Shown: positions 7,104 through 62,787, counted from the stretch's first letter. The stretch is DNA of 64,000 nt from Planctomycetota bacterium (GCA_965223545.1 OZ245006.1:2816001-2880000); one strand, 5' to 3'. Numbers and translations are program-made. Notes: generated by a model not told the origin, from the letters alone.

Positions 7104-8468
7104 ATGACGCCCACCAGGACCATCACCACCGCCGTTGTCATCGCCTTGTTCGGCTGCAGCCGCTCGCCCGACGGACCACCACCGCCGCAGGTCACGACTC
7201 TGGACGAGCGACTGCGCGCGCTGTGTGGAGAGCCGATCCAAGACGGTGAGAGCGGGGCGTGGACGGTCCGCCGTCTCGACCGCGCCGGCGGACGCACCCG
7301 TGTGTCGGGGCGGGCTCTCTCGGCCAAGGGCGAGCGGTCCGCGGTGGCCGACGGCTTCGCCCCCGAGGCGCCGGCGTCGATGACGGCGACCGCGGCCCCG
7401 GCAGCACCCCCGCTGCGCGCCGGCGCGACCGACGATCACGCCGACCACCGGGCGTTCGCAGAGTACCTCGCCGAGAGCTTCGCCAAGCTCGGCGAAGCAG
7501 TGCACGAGCTCGACGTGGCGGAGCGGCGTTGGATCCACGTCGTCGGCAGCCAGGGCGCCCCCCTGCCCGGAGCGCGGGTCCGGCTCGTCGACTTGCAGAA
7601 CGACACCCTGGTGTGGAGCGGCACGTCGATGGGAGACGGACGGCTGCCGTTCTACCCCGGCGTCGCCGGGGTCGCCGCGAGTGCCGAGCTCCTGGTCGAG
7701 GCCGAGGCGGCGGGTGCGAGCGTGCGGCAGAGCTGGAAGCTGAGCGAGACGACCTGCCGGGTCCAGCTCGACACGTCGTACTCCGCGCCCGAGGAAGTCG
7801 CTCTCGACGTCGTGTTCTTGATCGATACGACCGGCTCGATGGGTGACGAGATCCAGCGCATCAAGGACACCCTGAGCGGAGTCACCGACCGGCTGCAGAG
7901 CCTCTCGCGCGAGTCCGCTCTGCGCTACGGTGCCGTCCTCTACCGCGATGTCGGCGACGACTACGTCACCAAGCAGCACGCCTTCACGGCGGACCTCGAC
8001 GCGTTCGCCGGCGCGCTGCAAGAGATCGAGGCCAACGGAGGCGGCGACGGACCCGAGTCGCTCAACCAGGGGCTGGCGGTCGCCATCGACCGCATGCAAT
8101 GGCGGGCCAACGCCGCCAAGCTCGTCTTCTTGATCGCCGACGCGCCGCCGCACATGGACTACGCCGGCGACGTTCCGTACGGAGACAGCCTCGTGCGGGC
8201 GATCGAGCGCGGCGTGCGCATTCACGCCGTCGCCGCCAGCGGGCTCGATGCAGCGGGCAGCTGCGCCTTCCGCCAGATCGCGCACTTCACCCGCGGCAAG
8301 TTCATCTTCATCGAGTACGGCGGCGACGTGGCGGCCTCCGCCGCGGCGCACGGGGTTTCCAGCGCATCGGCCGCCAACAACCTCGACGCCATCCTGTTCG
8401 CGCAGATTCGCGACGAGATCGCGGGCTGGGGCCGGGCGCGGTCCGGCGAACAAGTCAGCATTCGCTGA
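7104..8468 (+). CDS. vWA-domain lipoprotein
   Basis: Lipobox-like LFGC; LDVVFLIDTTGSMGDEI (MIDAS), GGGDGPES, FLIADAPPH. Confidence 0.85.
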   Translation: MTPTRTITTAVVIALFGCSRSPDGPPPPQVTTLDERLRALCGEPIQDGESGAWTVRRLDRAGGRTRVSGRALSAKGERSAVADGFAPEAPASMTATAAPAAPPLRAGATDDHADHRAFAEYLAESFAKLGEAVHELDVAERRWIHVVGSQGAPLPGARVRLVDLQNDTLVWSGTSMGDGRLPFYPGVAGVAASAELLVEAEAAGASVRQSWKLSETTCRVQLDTSYSAPEEVALDVVFLIDTTGSMGDEIQRIKDTLSGVTDRLQSLSRESALRYGAVLYRDVGDDYVTKQHAFTADLDAFAGALQEIEANGGGDGPESLNQGLAVAIDRMQWRANAAKLVFLIADAPPHMDYAGDVPYGDSLVRAIERGVRIHAVAASGLDAAGSCAFRQIAHFTRGKFIFIEYGGDVAASAAAHGVSSASAANNLDAILFAQIRDEIAGWGRARSGEQVSIR

Positions 8469-8511
8469 CCTGCGTTTGGACCGGCAGCCAAGGGCGCGCG
8501 ATGATGCGCCG

Positions 8512-9486
8512 ATGATCGTCCCGCGCCATTGGGCGGAGGCGCGACTCCGACACCGCGACGCACACCGCCAGGTCACCGTCCGCCGCCTGGGGTGGTCGAA
8601 CGAGAGTGTCGAAGCCGCGGAAGCCCACGCCCGAGAACGGGCGCAGACCGCCCTGACGGCGATCCTGGCCGGACAAGACCTACCGCGGCGCGAGGCGGCC
8701 GTCGCCTACAACGGCGCCGAGGGCGTGCCGATCCGCGAGGAGATCGTCGCCGAACACGGCGAGGTGGTCCTCTCCCGCAATAGCTATGGAGCGGTGTGCC
8801 TCAACGTGCCCGACGTCTTGTTCGCCGACATCGACTACGCGCCGGTCGACCCGCCGTGGGGATTGGCGGCGACGGCGTGGATCGTCTTCGCCGCGGTGAT
8901 GCTGCAAGTCGAGCCCGAAGCGCGCGCCAGCTCCGCACCGGTCCTGTTCCTGCTGGGAGCGGCCGCGGTCGCGGCAACGCTGTGGCTGGCCTACCGCTTG
9001 GCGCGCGCACGACCGCGTGGCCTCGAGCGCCGCGCGCGCGAACGAGTGCGACGCTATGCCGAGAGCGAGGGCTGGCGGGTGCGCGTCTACCGCACGCCGG
9101 CAGGCCTGCGGCTGTTGGCGATGCACCGGCGGTTCGACCCGACCAGCACCGAGGTCGCCGCCGCGTTCGCCGCCATGGACGTCGACCCCGTCTACGCCCG
9201 GATGTGCACCCGGCAGCGCTGCTTCCGCGCGCGCCTCACCCCCAAGCCCTGGCGCGCGGGAATCCGCGCGCACATCCGGCCGCGTTCCGGCCGTTGGCCA
9301 GTACCCGAGACGCATCGGGCGGCGCGCCAACGGTGGATCGCGGCCTACGAGGAGGCGTCGCGGAAGTTCGCTTCCTGTCGATACCTGGAGACCCTCGGCG
9401 CCGGCGCGGCCGACCCGATGTGCGAGGACGTGCGAGTGCTGCACGACGCGCTCTGTGGCGCCGAGAAGGATCTGCCGCTGGCCTGA
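8512..9486 (+). CDS. Conserved-looking hypothetical membrane protein
   Basis: ATG at 8512; RNSYGAVCLN...LFADID, two TM helices, RVYRTPAGLRL, QRCFRARLTPKPWR. Function unknown. Confidence 0.75.
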   Translation: MIVPRHWAEARLRHRDAHRQVTVRRLGWSNESVEAAEAHARERAQTALTAILAGQDLPRREAAVAYNGAEGVPIREEIVAEHGEVVLSRNSYGAVCLNVPDVLFADIDYAPVDPPWGLAATAWIVFAAVMLQVEPEARASSAPVLFLLGAAAVAATLWLAYRLARARPRGLERRARERVRRYAESEGWRVRVYRTPAGLRLLAMHRRFDPTSTEVAAAFAAMDVDPVYARMCTRQRCFRARLTPKPWRAGIRAHIRPRSGRWPVPETHRAARQRWIAAYEEASRKFASCRYLETLGAGAADPMCEDVRVLHDALCGAEKDLPLA

Positions 9487-51164: not shown

Positions 51165-52448
51165 TCACCGCTCGGCGCCGCGCTTCTTTACCAAGCCGCC
51201 ATCGACGAGCATCTCGGTCGGGTAGAGCACCACCTCGTCGCTCTCGACCAGCCCGTCGCGTACCTCCGACTCGAGCGGGCCGCGCCGGCCGAGCTGAACG
51301 ATGACCCGCTCCGCCACCTCGCCGCGCACGACGAACACCGCCCACTGATCGCGCCAGCGAAACAGCGCACCCGCCGGCACCAGCAAGAGGTCGTCACCGC
51401 GCCACAGCTCGACGCGCACCTCGACCCGATAGCCATCGCCGAGCCGCGCCCACGCGCCGGCGGCGACCTGCTCGGGGTCCGGGTCGACGATCACGTTGAC
51501 GCGCTGCTCCTCGATGCCGAGCGCCGAGACGCGCGTGAAGCCACCCGGCTCGATGCGACGCACCCGCCCACCGAGCACGCGGGCGGCGCCCGCCTCGGTC
51601 TCGCCGCCGAAGCCGTGCACCTCGACCGGCATGCCGGGCCGCATCTTGACCGCCTGCTGCGAGAGAAAGTCGGCGACGATCTCCAGCTCGGCCACGTCGC
51701 CCACGTCCAAGATCGCGGTCCCCGCCGGCATCGTCCGAGCGCTCTCCTCGAACACGCGGAGCACCGCCCCGTCGATCGGCGAGCGCAGGCGCAGCACGCC
51801 ATCGTGCTCCGCATCGGTCCGGCCGCCGGCGTCCGACGGCGCCACCGCCGCCGGCAACCCGTCCTGGTCCGCCGCCCTGACGCGCAGCGTCGCGTTTGCC
51901 AGCTCCAGCTCGTACTCGGCCACCGCCACGCGGAACTCGGCGGCGCGCACCGCTTCGCGCGCCTGGCGCGCATCCCGCACCGCCGCGTCGAGCGCGCGCG
52001 GCGGCGCGTTGTCCCGCGCGCGGAGCTCCTCGGCGCGGCGCAGTTCGGCGGAGGCGTACTCCTCCTGCGCAGCCGCCTGGGCCAGCTCGGCGCGGGCCTG
52101 CCGCAGCGCGGCCTGTGCCCGCCGCTCGCGGGCGACCGCCTCGGCGCGGGCACGCGCATCGAGCGGGTCGGCGGCGATCGGCGCGAACTCGGCCACCAGG
52201 GTCTCGCGTGCGCGCACGGTGTCGCCGGCCTCGAGCGGAGGTCGCAGCAGCCGGCCGCGCACCGGCGCGCTGATCGTGTAGCGGTCGCGCACGCGGGTGC
52301 GCCCGTCGTCATCCGCGGTGATGGCGAGCGCCCCCCGACGCACGCCAGCGGCGTCCACCAATACGGGTTGGGGCTGGAAACCTCGCCACAACCCGAAGGC
52401 CACCGCGCCCAATACCACAAGCCAGATCGATCGTTTCAGCCAACGCAC
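51165..52448 (-). CDS. Periplasmic adaptor (membrane fusion) subunit of an ABC exporter
   Basis: TM, ISAPVRGRL and LRSPIDGAVL lipoyl halves around a coiled coil, SALGIEEQRV. Confidence 0.92.
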   Translation of the reverse strand: MRWLKRSIWLVVLGAVAFGLWRGFQPQPVLVDAAGVRRGALAITADDDGRTRVRDRYTISAPVRGRLLRPPLEAGDTVRARETLVAEFAPIAADPLDARARAEAVARERRAQAALRQARAELAQAAAQEEYASAELRRAEELRARDNAPPRALDAAVRDARQAREAVRAAEFRVAVAEYELELANATLRVRAADQDGLPAAVAPSDAGGRTDAEHDGVLRLRSPIDGAVLRVFEESARTMPAGTAILDVGDVAELEIVADFLSQQAVKMRPGMPVEVHGFGGETEAGAARVLGGRVRRIEPGGFTRVSALGIEEQRVNVIVDPDPEQVAAGAWARLGDGYRVEVRVELWRGDDLLLVPAGALFRWRDQWAVFVVRGEVAERVIVQLGRRGPLESEVRDGLVESDEVVLYPTEMLVDGGLVKKRGAER

Positions 52449-52449
52449 T

Positions 52450-54819
52450 TCAGTCTCGGGTCTTCAGCACTTGCACGATATCCAGGGAGTCCAACCGTCG
52501 CCAAGCCGACCACGCCGACAGCACCGCGGCGACCAGTACGGTCGCCACCGCCAGGGCATCGGTGGCCGGCGCGATCACCAGCGGCAGACGGAACTGGTCG
52601 CTGACGAAGCCGGGGCTGTTGACCAACAACGCCGCGAACCAATGGCCGAGGAGCAGACCCACCGGCAACGCAAGGGCGACCAGGATGCCGAGCTCGCCGA
52701 GCAGGATCGCCGACACCTCGCGCCGGCGGAAGCCCAGCACGCGCAGGCTCGCCAGCTCGCGCGCGCGCTCGGCGACCGTGATGCGCGCGGTGTTGTACAG
52801 CACGCCAGCGGCGAGGATCAGCGAGAACAGCAGAGTGACCACGACCGAGCGGCCGAGATTCTCGCGCAGCAGGGTGCGCATGCTGCGCAACGCCGTCTCC
52901 CGCACCGACAGCCCCGCGATCGCCGGCGTGTCGATCACCGCGCGATGCAGCGCGGGCAGCTCCGCCGCGTCCACCGCACACCAGGCACCGTTGAGGTTGG
53001 GGGTCTCGCCGAGCAGCTCGCAGAGCGCATCCAACCGCATGTACGCCGACACCCCGACCCAGGTCTCGGCCACGCGCGCGACCGCCACGTCGCGCACCGT
53101 GCGCGCGCCTTCCTGGATCTCCATCCGCACCCGGTCGCCGGCGGTGACGCCCAAGCGCCGCGCCAGGATGCCCGACAGCACCAAGCCCGCGGGCGGCGGC
53201 TCGATGTCGCGGAGCTCGACGTCCAAGAGGCCGTGGAGCGTGGTGTCCGCCGTCAGGCCCGTGACCGCGGTCGTCCGACTGCGCCAGCCCGCGCGCAGCC
53301 GCACCGGCACCAGCCGGAATGCCTCGGCGTGGCGCACGCCGGGGAGCTGCTCGATCTCGGTCAGCACGCCGGGGCCGCGCGGTTCGATGAGGGTGAGCCG
53401 CGCATCGGCGCGCTCGGCGAGACCGAACTGCACCTGCATGAGATGGGACACCGAGTCGAACAAGAACGCCGTGGTGATCACCAGCGCGGTCGCCATCGCG
53501 ATGCCGCCCGTGGTCATCACCGCGCGCCACGGCCGCCGCTCCAGCTCGCGCAGCACCATGCGGGCCGCAAACGGCGTCCAGCGTGCCAGCCCCAGGCGCT
53601 CGATCCAGGTCGGGCGGTACCCCGCCGGCGCCTCCGGCCGCATCGCCTCCGCCGGCTGCAGGCGCACGGTGCGCCACACCGCGCCCCAGGCGCCGACCAC
53701 GGCGATCGCGGCCGTGATCGCCACAGTGCGCGAGACGGCACCAAAGCCGAGGACCACCGGCAGCGACGGAAACCGGTAGTAGTCCAGATAGACCTGTGTC
53801 ATGCCGTGCGCCAGCCAGGCCCCGACCGCCAGACCGAGCACACAGCCGGTGGCGACGACCACGCCGACCAGTTTGGCGAAGTGCAGGCCGACCTCCAAGT
53901 CGCGGTAGCCGAGCGCCTTGAGCGCCGCGATCTGCTCGCGCTGGGCGGCGACGACCCGGCCGATGACGATGTGCAACAAGAACGCGGCGACGGCGAAGAA
54001 CAGGCCCGGCAGCATGGTGGTGAACGTGCGCAGCTGCGTGATCTCGTTCTCGACGAAGAACGCCGACACTTGATCGGCGCGCGGCACGGCGCCGACGCCA
54101 CCGTAGGCGGCGAGCACGCGGTCGACGCGGGCCAGCGTCGCCGGCATCGACACACCGCGACCGATCTGCAGGCAGACGTCGTTGAAGGCGCCGTCCATGT
54201 CCACGGCCGCCGCCAACGCGTCGCGGCGCATCCACAGCACTCCGAAGCGGCGGTCGTCCGGAAACAACTGGCCCGGTCCCACCGTGTAGATGAACTCCGG
54301 CGAGAGCGCCGTGCCGACCACGGCGAGCTCCTGCCACCTCCCTTCGATGACCGCTTGCACGGTATCGCCGAGCTGCAGCCGGTTGGCGAGCAAGAACGCT
54401 TCGTTGACGACGACCTCGGCGGCGCTGCGCGGCGCCGGCAGCCGCCCACTGCGCAGGCGGAGGTCGTTGACCAGCGGGCGCCCGTCCTCGGGCAGCGAGA
54501 GCAGCCGGCCGGTCGCGGTCTCGCTGGCTCCCGGCACCCGCATGGTGACGTCGACCAAGACGCGGGTCTGCGCCCGCTCGACGCCGGGCAACGCCGCCAA
54601 CCGTTCCGCGACGTGCTCGGGCGCGCGCACCAGGCTGGCGAACACGTGCGCGAAGCGCTCGCGCGCGTAGTAGTCGCCGCGCGCTGCCAGCAGCGAGTGC
54701 ATCGTCGCACCGAGGCCGACGTAGAGCGCGATGCCACTGGCCACGACCAACGCGATGGCGAGCAGCTGACCGCGCATCCGCGCGACGTCGCGCCAGACCT
54801 TGGTATCGAGGGCGCGCAT
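52450..54819 (-). CDS. FtsX/MacB-type ABC permease, duplicated
   Basis: Two MacB-PCD/FtsX halves (QREQIAALKALG; ERARELASLRVLG). ATG at 54819 overlaps the ATPase stop. Confidence 0.93.
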   Translation of the reverse strand: MRALDTKVWRDVARMRGQLLAIALVVASGIALYVGLGATMHSLLAARGDYYARERFAHVFASLVRAPEHVAERLAALPGVERAQTRVLVDVTMRVPGASETATGRLLSLPEDGRPLVNDLRLRSGRLPAPRSAAEVVVNEAFLLANRLQLGDTVQAVIEGRWQELAVVGTALSPEFIYTVGPGQLFPDDRRFGVLWMRRDALAAAVDMDGAFNDVCLQIGRGVSMPATLARVDRVLAAYGGVGAVPRADQVSAFFVENEITQLRTFTTMLPGLFFAVAAFLLHIVIGRVVAAQREQIAALKALGYRDLEVGLHFAKLVGVVVATGCVLGLAVGAWLAHGMTQVYLDYYRFPSLPVVLGFGAVSRTVAITAAIAVVGAWGAVWRTVRLQPAEAMRPEAPAGYRPTWIERLGLARWTPFAARMVLRELERRPWRAVMTTGGIAMATALVITTAFLFDSVSHLMQVQFGLAERADARLTLIEPRGPGVLTEIEQLPGVRHAEAFRLVPVRLRAGWRSRTTAVTGLTADTTLHGLLDVELRDIEPPPAGLVLSGILARRLGVTAGDRVRMEIQEGARTVRDVAVARVAETWVGVSAYMRLDALCELLGETPNLNGAWCAVDAAELPALHRAVIDTPAIAGLSVRETALRSMRTLLRENLGRSVVVTLLFSLILAAGVLYNTARITVAERARELASLRVLGFRRREVSAILLGELGILVALALPVGLLLGHWFAALLVNSPGFVSDQFRLPLVIAPATDALAVATVLVAAVLSAWSAWRRLDSLDIVQVLKTRD

Positions 54820-55571
54820 CACCAGGCGACGGACTCGGGCGCGACGCGCTGTGCGTTGCGCTGCACTTCGACCACCGCGCCGCCGGCCAAGCGCACCACG
54901 CGGTGCGCCAGACCGGCGATCGCCGCGTTGTGCGTGATCACCGCCGTCGCAGTGCCGAGCTCGCGGTGGATCCGGTCCAGCGCGGACAGCACACGGATGC
55001 CGGTCTCCACGTCCAGGGCACCCGTGGGCTCGTCGCAGAGCAGCACCTCGGGCTGCTTGGCGATGGCGCGGGCAATCGCCACGCGCTGCTGTTCGCCACC
55101 GGAGAGCTGCGCCGGGAAGTGGTCGGCGCGGTCCGCCAAGCCGACCAGCTCCAGCGCCGCATCCGGCGCCATCGGACGCGGCGCGATCTCGGTGACCAGC
55201 GCGATGTTCTCCCGGGCGGTCAGGCTCGGGATCAAGTTGTAGAACTGGAATACGAAACCGACGCGCGCCCGGCGGAACTCGGTCAGGCGGTTGCGGCCAG
55301 CACCGGTCAACTCCTCGTCGCGAAACCACACCTGCCCGGCGGACGGCACATCCAAGCCGCCGAGAATGTTGAGCAGCGTCGACTTGCCGCTGCCCGACGG
55401 TCCGAGCAGTACCAGAAACTCACCTGCTTCGAGCTCGAAGTCGACCCCGCGCAGCGCGACCACGTCGACCGCCCCCATGCGGTAGGTCTTGGTCACCCCG
55501 CGCATGCGGAACACCGGTCGTGCGGCCGCGGACGCGCCGGGAGCGGCAGCCGTGCGGACAGCCTCGGACAC
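54819..55571 (-). CDS. LolD/MacB-type ABC transporter ATP-binding protein
   Basis: [46 protein letters not shown]. Confidence 0.95.
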
Positions 55572-55943: not shown

Positions 55944-56135
55944 ATGCACGCCAAGAAGAACAAGAAGAACGTCCGACAAGCGCGCCCCGAGCTGCGCGAG
56001 CTCAACGCCAAGCAGCAAGCCGAGATCGTCGGTGGCGACGGCTCCACGCCGGTCACCACGTCGAGCTCCATCGGCGGCTCCTGGAGCTGGGGAGCCTTCA
56101 ACCCGCAGCCCGAACCGCCGCGCTTCTACTTCTAA
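55944..56135 (+). CDS. Double-glycine-leader precursor peptide (bacteriocin/RiPP-like)
   Basis: Leader ...RELNAKQQAEIVGG fits the ELxxxxxxxIxGG pattern; 32-aa core DGSTPVTTSSSIGGSWSWGAFNPQPEPPRFYF; directly upstream of a C39 ABC transporter. Confidence 0.88.
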   Translation: MHAKKNKKNVRQARPELRELNAKQQAEIVGGDGSTPVTTSSSIGGSWSWGAFNPQPEPPRFYF

Positions 56136-56219
56136 CCCACTGTGCCGCCGCGCCGGCCGCCGAACGACGGCCGGCGCGGCGTGCCGTCCTTCCCGCTTGT
56201 CCCTCCGGAGGGTTTCGCG

Positions 56220-58445
56220 ATGTGGAGACGCCGCGCCATCGTGCGCCAGCACGACCAATCCGACTGCGGGCCCGCGGCCCTCGCGACAGTGGCCGTCCAC
56301 CACCGCATGCCCGCGGCCCTCCACCGCCTGCGTGAGCACACACACACGGGCCGATCGGGCACCAGCCTGCTGGCCCTGTCGACGACCGCCGAGCGCATCG
56401 GTTTCGCCGCGCGCGCCGTAGACGTCGTCGACCGCGCCCTGCTTCGCGAGTGCCCGCTGCCGGCGATCGCACACGTGCGTCTGCCGGACGGCGGCGGCCA
56501 CTACGTCGTCGTCCACGCCGTGCGCGGCCGCCATGTTGTCATCGCCGATCCGGCCCGAGGCATCGACAAGCTCGCCGCTGACGAGTTCGACGCGCGCTGG
56601 ACCGGGCACCTCCTGCTGCTCACCCCCGACAGCACGCGCCAGCCGACGGCCACCGCTGGCACGCACCCGGCGCGGCGGTTCGTCGGGTTGATCGCAGCGC
56701 ACCGCCGCTTGCTCGCCGAAGTCGCGGTCTGCGCGCTCTTCGTCGGCGCGCTCGGCCTCGCTTCAGCCCACTTCGTGCGCCACCTCGTCGACGCGGTGTT
56801 CTCGCGCGGCGATCGCACGCTGCTCGACGGTCTCGGCGCCGGCATGCTGCTCGTCGTCGCCTTCCGCGCCCTGTTCGGCGCGGCCCGCGAGTACCTGTTG
56901 GCGCACGTCGGACGCCGCCTCGACCTCGCGCTGCACGGCGCATACACCGCCAAGATCCTGCGGCTGCCCCAGCGGTTCTTCGAGACCCGGCAGGTCGGCG
57001 AGATCCTGTCCCGCCTCACCGACGCCGGCAAGGTGCGCGAGGCGGTGACCGCTACTGCAACCACGGTGCTGGTCGACGGCTTCTTCGTCGTCGCCGCGAT
57101 GGCGATGATGCTGGCCTACGACCCGGGCTTGGGGGCGTGCGCCGCCTGCCTCGCCCCGGTGCTGGCGGTGTGCATGCTGGCCCACCAGCCGGCGGCCCGC
57201 CGCCGCGCCCACGCGGTGATGGAGAGCACGGCGCGGTTGCACGCGCAGTTGGCCGAGGACGCGGGCGCCGGCGAGACGATCAAGGCACACGGCGCCCAAC
57301 GGCAGCGCCGCGAGGCCGGCGAGGCGCGATTGGTGCAGCTCGCCCACGCGGGGTTCGACCTGCGGCAGCTCAACATGAGCCTCGGCCTGCTGGCGACTCT
57401 CGCCACCGGCGCGGCCACGGTCGCCGTACTCTGGTTCGGCGGCCACCGCGTGCTGTCCGGCGCGCTGAGCGTCGGCCAGCTCATGCTCTTCTTCACCTTG
57501 CTCGGCTACGCGCTGGATCCGCTGCAGAAGCTGGCGGTCGTCCACCTGCAGGTGCAGGAGGCGCTGGTCGCGATCGAGCGGCTGCACGACGTTCTCGATC
57601 TCGACGCCGAGGACGACGAAAGCGAGGGACGCGTGGTCTTGCCGGCCCTGCGGGACGGCATCGGCTTGCGCGGAGTCCACTTTGCCTACGACGCGGGACG
57701 CCCGACGCTGGACGGCATCGACCTGCAGATCGCCGCCGGCAAGACGACGGCCATTGTCGGCGGCAGCGGATCGGGCAAGTCGACGTTGCTGCGCCTGCTG
57801 CTGCGATTCTACGACCCCGACCAGGGCCAGGTGCTGGCCGACGGCATCGACCTGCGCGACTGCGTGCTCGATTCGCTGCGGGACCGCATCGGCCTGGTCT
57901 CGCAGGAGCCGTTCGTGTTCTCCGGCACGATCCGCGCGAACATCGCGCTCGGTCGACCCGACGCGCCGATGGCCGACATCGTGCGCGCCGCCGAGGCCGC
58001 CGGCCTGGCCGCGTTCATCGCCCGCCAGCCGCAGCGCTACGACACGTTGCTCGGCGAGCGCGGCGCCAATCTGTCCGGCGGCGAGCGCCAGCGCCTGGCG
58101 ATCGCCCGCGCTCTGCTGCGCGATCCCGACATCCTCCTGTTCGACGAGGCCACCAGTCACCTCGACACCGTGACCGAGCGCGCCATTCACGACACACTGC
58201 GCGCCGCGTCGGCCGGCAAGACGGTGGTCCTGGTCGCCCACCGGCTGAGCACGATCCAGCACGCCGACACGATCTACGTCCTCGAAGGGGGCCGCGTCGT
58301 GGAACACGGCGACCACGCGACCCTGCTCTCCCACGACGGCGCCTACCGCCGGTTGTACGACGCGCAGCTCGGGCAGCGATCGCCGCACGCACCCCGCCTT
58401 CCCCATCGCCCCGCGGCCGACGCCGCCCTGCAGGAGACCGCCTGA
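56220..58445 (+). CDS. Peptidase-containing ABC transporter (C39 + TMD + NBD)
   Basis: QHDQSDCGPAAL (Gln/Cys), HYVVV (His), IADPA (Asp), [40 protein letters not shown] before ATG 56220. Confidence 0.95.
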   Translation: MWRRRAIVRQHDQSDCGPAALATVAVHHRMPAALHRLREHTHTGRSGTSLLALSTTAERIGFAARAVDVVDRALLRECPLPAIAHVRLPDGGGHYVVVHAVRGRHVVIADPARGIDKLAADEFDARWTGHLLLLTPDSTRQPTATAGTHPARRFVGLIAAHRRLLAEVAVCALFVGALGLASAHFVRHLVDAVFSRGDRTLLDGLGAGMLLVVAFRALFGAAREYLLAHVGRRLDLALHGAYTAKILRLPQRFFETRQVGEILSRLTDAGKVREAVTATATTVLVDGFFVVAAMAMMLAYDPGLGACAACLAPVLAVCMLAHQPAARRRAHAVMESTARLHAQLAEDAGAGETIKAHGAQRQRREAGEARLVQLAHAGFDLRQLNMSLGLLATLATGAATVAVLWFGGHRVLSGALSVGQLMLFFTLLGYALDPLQKLAVVHLQVQEALVAIERLHDVLDLDAEDDESEGRVVLPALRDGIGLRGVHFAYDAGRPTLDGIDLQIAAGKTTAIVGGSGSGKSTLLRLLLRFYDPDQGQVLADGIDLRDCVLDSLRDRIGLVSQEPFVFSGTIRANIALGRPDAPMADIVRAAEAAGLAAFIARQPQRYDTLLGERGANLSGGERQRLAIARALLRDPDILLFDEATSHLDTVTERAIHDTLRAASAGKTVVLVAHRLSTIQHADTIYVLEGGRVVEHGDHATLLSHDGAYRRLYDAQLGQRSPHAPRLPHRPAADAALQETA

Positions 58446-59716
58446 TGAACCGCCCCTGGCTCGAGGTCCACGACAGCGCCACCCTCCGCGGCGCCCTCGC
58501 TGCGCGGCCGCCCCGGGTCGCGCGCGCGACGATCCTGCTCGCCGCCGCCCTGCTCGCCACCGCGACGGTATGGCTCGCCACCGCCGAGGCCACCGAGGTG
58601 GTCATGGCGAGCGGCCGCCTGCGCCCCGTCAGCCCGCCGACCGCCGTGTTCAGCAGCCTGCGCGGCGATCACGACGGCGCCGGCGCCCGCGTGCTCGCGG
58701 TCGGCGTCGCCCCCGGTGACACCGTGCGCCAAGGCGACGTCCTGCTGCAGCTCGACGACCGGTGGTTGGTCGATCGACTCGACCAGGCCGAGCGCGACGC
58801 CGGCAGCGCCGAGGCCGAGCTGGTGCGCCTCCGCGCGCTGGCCGCACTTGCGGCACGGCGCCACACCGCCGATTCCGCGAGCGCGGATGCCGACATCGAG
58901 CGCGCGGCGAACACCGTTGCCCGCGCCGAGCGCCAGCGCGCGGCGACCCTGGCGCTCGCCGAGCTCGCTCAGACCGAATGCCAGCGCGACGTCGACCGAC
59001 TGCGCACCTTGGTTGCGCGCGACGCCGCCGCTCACCAGCGCTTGCTCGACGCCGAGGGCGCGTTGCAGCGCGCGCGGGAAGAGCGTGCGCTGGCGGCACT
59101 CCCGGTCGACGACGCGCCGCACACGGCAGCGCGCCACGCCCGCGCGCTGCTCGACCGCGAGTTCGCCATCGAAGTCGAGGAACACGCGATCGCGATCGAG
59201 CGACAACGCGCTGTCCTGGCGACGGCGCGGGCCGAACGCGACAAGTGGCGGCGCGAGCGCTCGCGCGCGACGATCCACGCGCCGATCGACGGCGTCGTGG
59301 TGCGCGGCGAGCACGCCGCCGGCGACCTGGTCCGTCCGGGCAGCGTCGTCTTCGAACTGGCGGCGACCGACCGCCTGTGCTTCACCGCGGAGGTCGCCAA
59401 CGCCGACGTCGCCGACTTGACCGCCGGCATGCCGGTGCGAATCAAGATCGACGCGCTCGACCATCAGCGGCACGGCACAGTGGTCGGGCGGATCGAGTTC
59501 GTCGCACCCGACGCGGGGTCACGCCAGGCCGGCGACGGCGGCGCGGCGGCGAGCTTCGAAGTGCGCGTCGCGATGGGTGAACCCGCGCGCTGGCACGGCG
59601 GCGAGGGCGGCACGCTCCGGCTGGGAATGACCGGAGTCGCCGAGATCGCCATCGAGCGGCGCACGCTGGGCGCGCTGCTGCTCGACCGCGTGCGGCGCGC
59701 GATTCGACTGGGCTGA
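58445..59716 (+). CDS. HlyD-family membrane fusion protein
   Basis: ATG overlaps the transporter stop (TGATG); TM, GDTVRQGDVLLQLD, coiled coil, IHAPIDGVV, LRLGMTGVAEI. Confidence 0.93.
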   Translation: MNRPWLEVHDSATLRGALAARPPRVARATILLAAALLATATVWLATAEATEVVMASGRLRPVSPPTAVFSSLRGDHDGAGARVLAVGVAPGDTVRQGDVLLQLDDRWLVDRLDQAERDAGSAEAELVRLRALAALAARRHTADSASADADIERAANTVARAERQRAATLALAELAQTECQRDVDRLRTLVARDAAAHQRLLDAEGALQRAREERALAALPVDDAPHTAARHARALLDREFAIEVEEHAIAIERQRAVLATARAERDKWRRERSRATIHAPIDGVVVRGEHAAGDLVRPGSVVFELAATDRLCFTAEVANADVADLTAGMPVRIKIDALDHQRHGTVVGRIEFVAPDAGSRQAGDGGAAASFEVRVAMGEPARWHGGEGGTLRLGMTGVAEIAIERRTLGALLLDRVRRAIRLG

Positions 59717-59820: not shown

Positions 59821-60765
59821 ATGCATGACTCCCTCGACCATGATCTCGCGCAGCTGCGCGAGCGGATCCACGAGCGAACTCGGTTGCAAGACAAGCTGAC
59901 GGCGGCCCGCGCCGAGCTCGCCAAGGCCAACCGCCAGCGCCAGAAGCTGCGCACCGAGCTCGAGAAAGAAGGCACCGACGTCGCCGAGCTGGAGCGCATG
60001 TCGTTCACCAACCTGATCGTCAGCTTGTTCGGCGACAAGGACCGGCGGTTGGACAAGGAGAAGAAGGAGCTCGCCCAGGCCCAGCTGCGCTACGAGGAGC
60101 ACATGACGCACGTCGAGGCCCTGCGCGACGAGGTCGCCGAGCTGCAGGCCGCCGCCGACGCGCTGCCGGCCGATCTGGACGATCAGTTTGCCGAGCTGTG
60201 CGCGCGCAAGGAGAAGGCGATCCTCCAGTCCGCCGGCGCATCCGGTCGCCAGCTCCAGGCCGTCGCCGAGCAACGGTCCGCGCTCGCCGCCGAACTTGCC
60301 GACATCGACGGGGCGCGGAGCGGGACGGAGCACGCGCTCGCCGCGCTCGAGTCGCTCAAACGCGAGCTCGACGGTGCCCGAGGCTGGGGGATGGTGGACA
60401 TGGCCGGCGGCGGCCTGTTGACCACCGCGCTGAAGCACGGGCGGCTGTCAGCGGCGAAGACCGCGGCCGGCAGAGCGCAGCGCGCGATGTCCCGGTTGCG
60501 CCGCGAGCTGCAGGACGTCGAGGCGCGCGTTCCGCGCCTGAAGGTCGACGTCGGCGGGCTGATGCAGGCGAGCGACTACGTGTTCGACGGCCTGCTCTTC
60601 GATTGGATCGTGCAGTCGAAGATCGGCAAGGCGCGGGAGGAAGTCGATCTGGCGCGGCGACAAGTGCGCAGTGTCGGCACGCGCCTCACTACGCGACACC
60701 GCGAAGCAACGGTGCAGCTCGAGCAGCTGGACCGACAGCGCGACGCGCTGCTCGGCCTCGACTGA
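59821..60765 (+). CDS. Coiled-coil hypothetical protein
   Basis: Heptad-rich; KEGTDVAELE, WGMVDMAGGG, DYVFDGLLFDWIVQSKI; coding-like codon usage. Confidence 0.8.
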   Translation: MHDSLDHDLAQLRERIHERTRLQDKLTAARAELAKANRQRQKLRTELEKEGTDVAELERMSFTNLIVSLFGDKDRRLDKEKKELAQAQLRYEEHMTHVEALRDEVAELQAAADALPADLDDQFAELCARKEKAILQSAGASGRQLQAVAEQRSALAAELADIDGARSGTEHALAALESLKRELDGARGWGMVDMAGGGLLTTALKHGRLSAAKTAAGRAQRAMSRLRRELQDVEARVPRLKVDVGGLMQASDYVFDGLLFDWIVQSKIGKAREEVDLARRQVRSVGTRLTTRHREATVQLEQLDRQRDALLGLD

Positions 60766-60786: not shown

Positions 60787-62787
60787 TCAGCGGCACTGGA
60801 TGCGCACCCCCGGCGCCACCGCCCAGGTGTGGCTCTCGACCTCGTTGAGCGGCCGCAGCGCGTAGTCCACGCCGTCCGCGAGCTTGGCGTACTCGGCGGG
60901 CGCAACCTGAATGTAGATCTCGCGGAACTCACCGTCCGCCGATGAGAAGCAGCCGACAGCGGCCTCGACGGCGACACTCGGCTGCCCCGCCGCCTCGAGC
61001 ACGAAGCTGCGGTCGGCGTGGCGCGTGAACGCCTTGAGCTGATCCCCGTCCTGGCCGTCGATCCACTCGTCGACGTGCGCCAACAAGTGGCCCGATCCCG
61101 GCAGAGCTTCGCGAATCCACGACGGGGTGTCGGGAGCGTTGGCCCAGTACAGCCGGGTGACGGTGAGCCGCCGGTGACCGCCGGCGCCGACAGCCGATTC
61201 CGCGCTCCCCTCATCGGCCGGGCGCGTGAGTGTCACTCCGGAGAGCACTTTCCAGTGCGGGGGGCCGCCGCCGTTGACCGCCCGGAGCGTGTAGGCGACC
61301 CCCGCGGTCATCTTCGCCAGCTCGGGGGGATCGATCTGCAGGTAGAACTCATTGGTCCAGAAACCGCGCCGCGCCTCGGCACGGACGTCGGGGTGTCCCG
61401 CCGCCTCGAACACGAACTCCTTGTCGAGCGCCGCATAGACCTCCATGTAGCGATCGACTCCGTCGAACTCTTCGTCGACACGCATCAGGACGTGGCCCGA
61501 TCCGTCGCGCACACACTCGTCCTCGCCGATCCACGCCGGCCGGTCGGGCCCGTGGAACCAACAAGCCCGCGAGACGGTCAAGCGCTGCAACGGCCCATCC
61601 TCGACCTCGGGATTGTCGAGGTCCGCGTGCACCCCGAACCGGTCGGAGATGCCGATCGCGGCGTACGGGTTGTTGTGGTTGAAGACGAACGTCTTGCGGT
61701 GTTTGGCCGACCAAACACCCCAAGTGTCCTGCAGCCCCCACTCGCTCAGATCGTTGAAGGTGTGGACGTGGGTCAGCAACCCGAACATGCCGCGGTCCAG
61801 GATCGGCTGACCCAACCGACTGTAGTTGAGGCGCCGCCAGCGCCCGCCGACGTACACCTCGTTGAACGTGTGGGACGCGAAGGCGTTCTCGAGCGGCGCG
61901 AGCCCGCGCAGAATCGCGGCCCGCACCGCGTGGTGGGTCACGCCATGGCGCACCATCTCCACTTGGCGTGGATCGGAGCCATCGACGACCGGGATTGCCA
62001 AGATCATCCGGGTCGGGATGCCGACCGCGCGCAGCACCGTGGTGAGCGCCATCGCCGACGACGTGCAGGTGCCGCGCGTCTTGTGGTAGTACATCGAGCG
62101 ACCGAGCAGCTCGCGTTCGAACAACTCCTCGAAGCTCCACGACAGGTCGGCCTTGTCGATGTTCCGCTCGCGCCCCGGGATTGGCTGAACGACGCCGTCC
62201 GGGTAGTGCACGTGCAGTGCGTTGAAGAGCGGGTAGCTCCGGTAGGTGTCGACGAACCAGCGAGACACCTTCTCCACCACTTCCACGTCGGTCAACGCGT
62301 CCCGTTCGATCCCGGCAGCGCCAAGCTCGGCGAGGAGATCCCGGCGCATCTTGGCGTCCCAGTTCGTGTTGATGCGCGGCGCCAAGAACTCCTTCATCCG
62401 CGCCGCCGCCACCTGCCAGCGACGGGTGCCTTCGATCGCGTCGCCCGCGGTCGACAGCGGATAGTGGATCACCTCGAGCTCGACGTAGTCGGCGGTCTGC
62501 TCGAGCACCCGCGCATCCTGGTAGTCGTCGTCGAGACCGTCACCCAGTCCGCACGGCGGCATCACGCGGACGATCGAGCGGAGCGAATAGGTGTACTCCC
62601 GGCGCTCGTTCCAGTCCCCGTCGGGGGTGCCGTCGCCATCGCTATCGGCGCTCTCGGGATCGGTGCGGTATTTGTGGAGCTCGTGGAAGTCGGCGAGACC
62701 ATCGCGGTCCGTGTCCGGCCCGGCATCGGTTTGAGCGGCGGCTGCGCCGCAGACGAACAGGCCGAGGAGAGAGAACGGAGCGTGCAT
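60787..62787 (-). CDS. Secreted transglutaminase-like protein with N-terminal Ca-binding-type repeats and a duplicated C-terminal domain
   Basis: Signal peptide; DTDRDGLAD..E, DSDGDGTPDG; RGTCTSSA (Cys), RAVGIPTR, HTFNEVYVGGRWRRLN (His). Confidence 0.85.
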   Translation of the reverse strand: MHAPFSLLGLFVCGAAAAQTDAGPDTDRDGLADFHELHKYRTDPESADSDGDGTPDGDWNERREYTYSLRSIVRVMPPCGLGDGLDDDYQDARVLEQTADYVELEVIHYPLSTAGDAIEGTRRWQVAAARMKEFLAPRINTNWDAKMRRDLLAELGAAGIERDALTDVEVVEKVSRWFVDTYRSYPLFNALHVHYPDGVVQPIPGRERNIDKADLSWSFEELFERELLGRSMYYHKTRGTCTSSAMALTTVLRAVGIPTRMILAIPVVDGSDPRQVEMVRHGVTHHAVRAAILRGLAPLENAFASHTFNEVYVGGRWRRLNYSRLGQPILDRGMFGLLTHVHTFNDLSEWGLQDTWGVWSAKHRKTFVFNHNNPYAAIGISDRFGVHADLDNPEVEDGPLQRLTVSRACWFHGPDRPAWIGEDECVRDGSGHVLMRVDEEFDGVDRYMEVYAALDKEFVFEAAGHPDVRAEARRGFWTNEFYLQIDPPELAKMTAGVAYTLRAVNGGGPPHWKVLSGVTLTRPADEGSAESAVGAGGHRRLTVTRLYWANAPDTPSWIREALPGSGHLLAHVDEWIDGQDGDQLKAFTRHADRSFVLEAAGQPSVAVEAAVGCFSSADGEFREIYIQVAPAEYAKLADGVDYALRPLNEVESHTWAVAPGVRIQCR

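Follow-up and report, generated by a model that had tools for sequence, protein, structure and literature searches.

A PCAT-HlyD export operon of a Planctomycetota bacterium and its predicted FNPQPEPP-bearing cargo peptide

Introduction

Double-glycine export systems of the peptidase-containing ABC transporter (PCAT)/AMS type, which include the CvaAB-type systems with their HlyD protein, are the closest described relatives of the operon reported here. According to an extract of PMC10885120, PCATs recognise hydrophobic residues at leader positions -4, -7 and -12. We analysed positions 55,944 to 59,716 of a 64,000-nucleotide DNA stretch from a Planctomycetota bacterium (GCA_965223545.1 OZ245006.1:2816001-2880000; the whole stretch is called the window below). 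A first-pass annotation had recognised a 63-residue precursor, a C39 ABC transporter and a translationally coupled HlyD there, and all three genes were recovered by open reading frame (ORF) calls, Pfam matches and the overlap of the last two. We consider it quite probable that the precursor is cut after Gly31 and that an unmodified 32-residue core is exported through the PCAT, the HlyD protein and a TolC-type channel.

The double-glycine leader and its likely cleavage site

A profile built from six other leaders, with the window peptide excluded, ranked this peptide first among 11,837 small GG/GA ORFs genome-wide. Scoring of the five GG, GA and GS sites in the precursor revealed a positive value for the first GG alone (+17.8), and by its sequence this GG, ending at Gly31, is the likely cut site. 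Together with the position beside the only C39 gene of the genome, the rank supports the earlier call of a double-glycine leader and export system. Release of an 18-residue peptide at the second GG, which the first-pass annotation had also considered, found no support: that site scored -18.3 in the profile, making the 18-mer an unlikely C39 product, and GA was likewise rejected on negative scores. The core could be trimmed by another protease. The small ORF stands out beyond chance, since its third-position GC (GC3, 0.89) is close to that of the neighbouring genes, its leader ranks at the top and it adjoins the only C39 match of the genome.

The exporter and its relatives

The PCAT matched Peptidase_C39 (PF03412, 2e-34), ABC_membrane (PF00664) and ABC_tran (PF00005) above cut-off, its top PDB match was an ABC-type bacteriocin transporter (4ry2, E 7e-144), and the adaptor matched HlyD_3 (2.8e-18). 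The oxyanion Gln (Q10) and the catalytic Cys-His-Asp (C16, H94, D110) are all present, as the first-pass annotation had read them, with a spacing that matches Gln21, Cys27, His101 and Asp117 of LahT in an extract of PMC6363468. The Walker A and B, signature and H-loop motifs are also present. The PCAT is the sole PF03412 match in the 8.1-Mb, 91% complete genome, and 19 matches to outer-membrane OEP (PF02321) lie elsewhere in it as candidate partners of this exporter.

Relatives of the PCAT are 48-59% identical over the first 330 residues (best 120 of 318), and 25 of the 400 genomes sampled from the phylum contain a member of the group (E 1e-30). The neighbourhoods of the close PCATs were read from crude gene calls, with L178 just 1.5 kb long. 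At five of these loci (L178, L179, L295, L296, L300) the GG-leader peptides number from one to about eight, their cores are unrelated and a modifying enzyme is not evident; L302 holds lanthipeptide-type precursors with LanB, and on inspection L294, L297, L298 and L299 showed no clear peptide. The exporter is therefore ordinary. The first-pass annotation had noted the lack of a modifying enzyme; the lack holds for the eight neighbouring ORFs scanned with Pfam, but by inspection it is shared by related exporters and is not unusual in this group.

The L302 cluster (L302:7094-12671) is of class I lanthipeptide type, comes from a genome of the same order and carries two Ser/Thr-rich precursors of 128-134 residues. 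By eye, an ECF-sigma-like gene and one for a Ser/Thr kinase were recognised close to the exporters of L185, L294, L295 and L300, a setting often met in this group; the window locus has neither.

The core peptide

The predicted core consists of a 20-residue Ser/Thr/Trp spacer, the FNPQPEPP motif and an RFYF tail. It contains 0 Cys and 9 Ser+Thr, with a charge of -1.2 and a calculated unmodified mass of 3460.7 Da, and is slightly acidic, proline-rich and, by inspection, not amphipathic. This agrees with its earlier description as a Cys-free core with a Ser/Thr-rich first half that is neither cationic nor amphipathic like class II bacteriocins. Neither precursor nor core matched a family in Pfam or NCBIfam, so the peptide falls, as anticipated, into no bacteriocin family described there. 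A single-sequence word search of the protein collection returned only the peptide itself, and phmmer against 1.84 billion representatives found no full-length relative, its matches being the window peptide, three fibre-like proteins and two LNPQPLPP-repeat proteins. The ESM Atlas returned unnamed clusters alone, scoring 0.87 with the window peptide and 0.91 with P0130. Two LNPQP matches in the genome lie across tRNA genes and have nothing to do with the motif.

The best non-self phmmer matches of the window peptide are undescribed Peptidase_S74 fibre-like proteins (P0145-P0147, L059), which carry 27-residue FNPQPEPP repeats. The window core aligns in register with one such repeat, GG turn and Trp included, although the fibre-like proteins are 570-740 residues long and Sec-exported, unlike the 63-residue precursor. 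The view of the whole core as one fibre repeat passed only a circular test on pre-selected matches and was not significant in an unbiased one (332/3000 shuffles); the likeness of the spacer is therefore a lead only.

Searching with a profile made from the window peptide plus two GG-motif peptides gave 24 proteins. In 20 of the 23 that were fetched, one of them a query seed, GG immediately precedes FNPQP[DE]PP. Seven of these 20 end in RY right after the motif, resembling the RFYF tail of the window. Alignment of 18 sequences (A4) revealed an invariant GG and F-N-P-Q-P-x-P-P. Weak matches to TIGR03949, below cut-off and over the leader only where shown, were found in 15 of the 18 family members, and the window peptide had none. 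Searching the PDB with the family leader profile gave only PCAT1 substrate entries and a Nif11 protein, all weak (E 0.18-2.6). Four of the five genomes with short motif peptides carry C39 genes elsewhere.

Spread and conservation of the FNPQP[DE]PP motif

The motif was searched for as a degenerate DNA pattern, with the reversed pattern or peptide as control. This genome has a single FNPQP[DE]PP. The pattern matched 4 of 400 genomes from the phylum, where its reversed form matched none, and at least 121 GTDB stretches, whose record titles span about 15 phyla, two archaeal; cultured non-pathogenic carriers include Methylosinus, Sphingomonas, Cellvibrio and Sorangium. The motif is thus widespread in uncharacterised proteins, among which the first-pass annotation had placed it. 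Some matches, such as L071, L074 and L136, look like chance. Copy statistics were taken from the 163 distinct copies among the matches listed. These use 134 distinct DNA spellings, and their GC3 tracks host GC (0.41 to 0.79), which argues for selection at the peptide level. Origin as a DNA-level repeat or a tRNA antisense is ruled out by the synonymous spread.

By heuristic rules, the 163 listed copies follow a signal-peptidase-I-like site (14), a lipoprotein Cys (13), a KTxVKxG leader (3), a GG leader (2), a (D/N)PGxxxG-type spacer (45) or another context (86). A predicted processing site precedes the motif in 32 copies, residue -1 is G, A or S in 130, and the motif lies within 15 residues of the stop in 31 of 129 closed ORFs. 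Carriers comprise tiny stand-alone peptides and tandem-repeat, PEP-CTERM, secreted beta-domain and Peptidase_S74 fibre-like proteins, the S74 domain being found in three of four fibre-like carriers scanned. Recognised by eye from translations, the motif also stands in C-terminal tails of ATP synthase alpha (L018, L084, L089, L102; Acidobacteriota) and in linkers of 2-oxoacid dehydrogenase E2 (L017, L020, L021, L048, L058, L119; Alphaproteobacteria), often with a PG-x-x-x-G lead-in.

Two loci carry the motif in arrays of small ORFs. One (L248:7887-8174) has three tandem ORFs of 18-19 residues that hold a short Lys-rich leader, the motif and little else. The other (L250:2795-5427) has seven or more small ORFs whose KTNVKAG-type leaders repeat and whose short cores vary, one of them being FNPQPDPP; two of its ORFs were scanned and matched nothing in Pfam or NCBIfam.

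Other motifs recur with FNPQP[DE]PP in the 128 carrier proteins, namely PP[DG]PC (12), LNPQPxPP (12) and LPAVQ (10), counts that are inflated by related proteins and stand against 0 for the reversed controls. GDGSV, IQDSED and GGPDT also co-occur with it, and GII[VAIL] is not in excess. Viral contigs yielded one motif stretch versus six for the reversed-peptide control, indicating no phage enrichment. In both carriers that were modelled, the motif is predicted as coil. The PEP-CTERM carrier model is poor overall (mean pLDDT 55.6), and low confidence at the motif is thus no proof of disorder there; a fold search with the secreted beta-domain carrier yielded no clear match (best TM ~0.4). No relevant paper on the motif was found in listings of mostly open-access literature, and neither Pfam nor NCBIfam has a family model for it.

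Proposed function and alternative explanations

We propose that the leader would dock on the C39 domain and be cut after Gly31, and that the unmodified core would leave through the PCAT, the HlyD protein and a TolC-type channel encoded elsewhere. The functional part of the core would be FNPQPEPP, a portable linear motif which other bacteria may attach to different export leaders or carry on their surface proteins. Once free, the peptide would most likely act as a soluble ligand, either signal or competitor, for an extracellular protein that also reads the motif on surface proteins. Taken as a whole, this proposal is tentative, and we give it slightly less than an even chance. Sequence provides its genes, catalytic residues, leader and the conservation and spread of the motif; cleavage and export would follow established PCAT biology by analogy, and the absence of modification, the ligand role and the shared partner are what we infer. 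The proposal is favoured because an intact exporter and the best leader of the genome lie beside the sole C39 gene, with 19 OEP matches available. It is also favoured by the GG immediately before the motif in 20 of the 23 fetched proteins, seven of them ending in RY, by the near-minimal ORFs of L248, by the placement of the motif at processing sites and in predicted coil, by its 134 spellings and by its occurrence in 4 of 400 genomes versus 0 for the control.

Several observations weigh against this proposal. The leader has GG, Ile at -4 and Leu at -12 but Gln at -7, a caution since PCATs read hydrophobic residues at all three positions (PMC10885120, in extract). Between GG and motif lie 20 residues in the window versus none in the other 17 rows of the alignment, and one genome with two GG-motif peptides (G449) has no C39 match. 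The cytoplasmic ATP synthase alpha and E2 copies conflict with a purely extracellular role. The host family showed no enrichment (7 of 90 genomes with a looser motif pattern versus 10 control matches), no neighbour family recurs across most motif loci (largest 12 of 80) and no partner or receptor was found. A C39 gene beside the motif was seen in the window alone among the motif loci (80 with flanks up to 6 kb, 41 with 300 bp); the pattern search for small motif ORFs near C39 transporters, suggested in the first-pass annotation, thus returned this one case. The motif was absent from 74 other fetched C39 loci, some overlapping and most short-flanked.

A broader idea, which we regard as speculative and rather unlikely, is that FNPQP[DE]PP belongs to an undescribed set of short portable tags, a kind of vocabulary whose words a shared protein reads or modifies, with this operon exporting the tag alone. 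The vocabulary would include LNPQPLPP, PP[DG]PC, LPAVQ, GDGSV, IQDSED and GGPDT, in bacteria and some archaea of about 15 phyla, on free peptides, surface proteins and core enzymes.

Modifying enzymes were searched for throughout the genome, as the first-pass annotation had advised, and revealed an orphan synthetase, nine SPASM matches and no YcaO. The synthetase is a class IV-like lyase-kinase-LanC protein (L262:6007-9295; C1 ~7,362,000-7,365,300) followed by a 132-residue ORF, a candidate substrate, in which Cys residues are densely clustered close to the end; no exporter lies nearby, and this system might use the only PCAT of the genome. Of the two LanC-like matches in the genome, both far from the operon, the second is a stand-alone protein between sugar-modification genes and an ABC pair (L263:~7200-8562; C1 ~2,292,200-2,293,560).

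That the motif or the Ser/Thr stretch is modified by a cytoplasmic enzyme encoded elsewhere, the product being a RiPP modified in trans and the motif its modification tag, is rather unlikely. Such a tag would account for the motif copies in cytoplasmic enzymes, and the orphan synthetase without local exporter and the SPASM matches could supply the enzyme. At L252 a GG-motif peptide has a partial LanL/LanKC-like gene about 550 bp away, and the same-order L302 locus combines Ser/Thr-rich precursors and a similar Lys-rich leader with LanB. However, the core is Cys-free and therefore holds no lanthionine, and the orphan synthetase has its own Cys-rich neighbour; dehydration or another change of the core, lanthionine aside, could occur. 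YcaO, PqqD and LanB had no match in the 91% complete genome, with the LanB query silent in the control genomes too. In addition, 27 of the 163 listed copies stand behind Sec-type sites, a route for unfolded chains, and no enzyme recurs beside motif genes.

An unmodified antibacterial role resembling class II bacteriocins or microcins, with the motif incidental or a protease shield, is distinctly unlikely, even though antibacterial activity is the commonest described role of PCAT cargo in an extract of PMC6363468. The sister exporters L184, L295 and L300 carry hydrophobic, bacteriocin-like cores. A divergent three-gene ABC system upstream (51165-55499, minus strand; ATPase, FtsX-type permease and HlyD_D23-type adaptor) could in principle confer immunity, but it was seen beside none of the other fetched PCAT loci, and no small immunity gene was seen at the locus. 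The core properties described above and its lack of a family match do not suit such a peptide, and a toxin would hardly be expected to share its motif with lipoproteins and PEP-CTERM proteins.

The four prolines in eight residues, with their X-Pro rhythm, and the placement of the motif at mature N-termini (32/163), near the stop (31/129) and in linkers would suit a decoy that resists proteolysis, or an inhibitor, acting on extracellular proline-specific peptidases and guarding protein ends and linkers, the free peptide shielding other secreted products. Generic protease resistance needs no invariant F-N-P-Q, no peptidase gene recurs near the motif and no inhibitor family matched, which makes this role improbable. 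Least probable is a cassette that was gained recently or is decaying, with a peptide that is processed poorly and now serves no function. In its favour are Gln at -7, the lack of a close whole-peptide relative among the 1.84 billion representatives and the lack of an orthologous locus in 60 relatives or 90 family genomes. Against it, all three frames are uninterrupted, the catalytic and ATPase motifs are intact, GC3 is host-like, and rapid core turnover is usual beside these exporters.

The exporter itself adds little; the cargo and its motif are the part worth studying, because through them a linear motif that is widespread and apparently unpublished is tied to an export route already known. 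The operon offers a compact test system of three genes, a calculable product mass and a synthesisable bait peptide of 8-12 residues. A partner of the motif, if identified, would account for something that recurs in many hypothetical proteins of soil and water bacteria.

Organization of the locus

Features of the operon are collected in Table 1. The ATG of the HlyD gene shares one base with the TGA of the PCAT gene at 58445. The PCAT probably starts at ATG 56220, with GGAGG close upstream; the alternative GTG 56142 falls within the RNA hairpin. Folding of 96 nucleotides in the hairpin region gave -49.9 kcal/mol (z -3.07; 3 of 200 shuffles equal or better), and the hairpin may stabilise the precursor message or damp read-through. 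No sigma-70 promoter match was found for the operon. Three of four public sequencing runs, possibly the source of the stretch, contained it in a single contig with 0 differences; no RNA run was listed as containing it.

Table 1. Predicted features of the operon, in window coordinates.
Feature	Position	Strand	Basis
Precursor gene, 63 aa	55944..56135	+	ORF call; GC3 0.89; also a gene call in protein collection
Double-glycine leader, 31 aa	55944..56036	+	Leader-profile rank 1/11,837; site score +17.8
Predicted exported core, 32 aa	56037..56132	+	Cys-free; internal GG scores negative as C39 site
FNPQPEPP motif	56097..56120	+	Sole NPQPxPP in six-frame translation of genome
G+C-rich RNA hairpin	56140..56186	+	Directly 3' of precursor stop codon; fold prediction
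PCAT, 741 aa	56220..58445	+	Pfam, PDB match, catalytic and ATPase motifs
HlyD-type membrane fusion protein, 423 aa	58445..59716	+	Pfam; start overlaps PCAT stop

Downstream of the operon lies the gene of a conserved 314-residue coiled-coil protein of no named family (59821-60765, plus strand), with a second copy in the genome. It is probably not part of the system, as an HlyD match was found within 1.5 kb at 0 of 11 other loci. On the opposite strand follows a gene for a transglutaminase-like secreted protein (60787-62787, minus strand).

Comparison with known systems

Similar to PCAT1-CtA, LahT-LahA, ComA-ComC and the CvaAB-type systems, the operon has a C39 domain with transmembrane and nucleotide-binding domains, the catalytic residues, a GG leader and an HlyD protein. 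It differs from them in a core unlike any described cargo, in Gln at -7 and in the lack of a sensor kinase, immunity or modification gene. Class II bacteriocins and microcins likewise place an unmodified core behind a GG leader, the unmodified state here being predicted, whereas the window core is acidic, proline-rich and Cys-free and matches no family. Compared with class IV and class I lanthipeptides, the Ser/Thr-rich start of the core and the Lys-rich leader resemble the L302 precursors, but the core lacks Cys and the locus lacks a synthetase. Unlike pheromone systems of the ComC/ComDE type, no cognate sensor kinase or regulator was found by Pfam scan among the eight neighbouring ORFs. As far as its sequence indicates, the locus therefore pairs a known type of exporter with a cargo family and a motif that are both undescribed.

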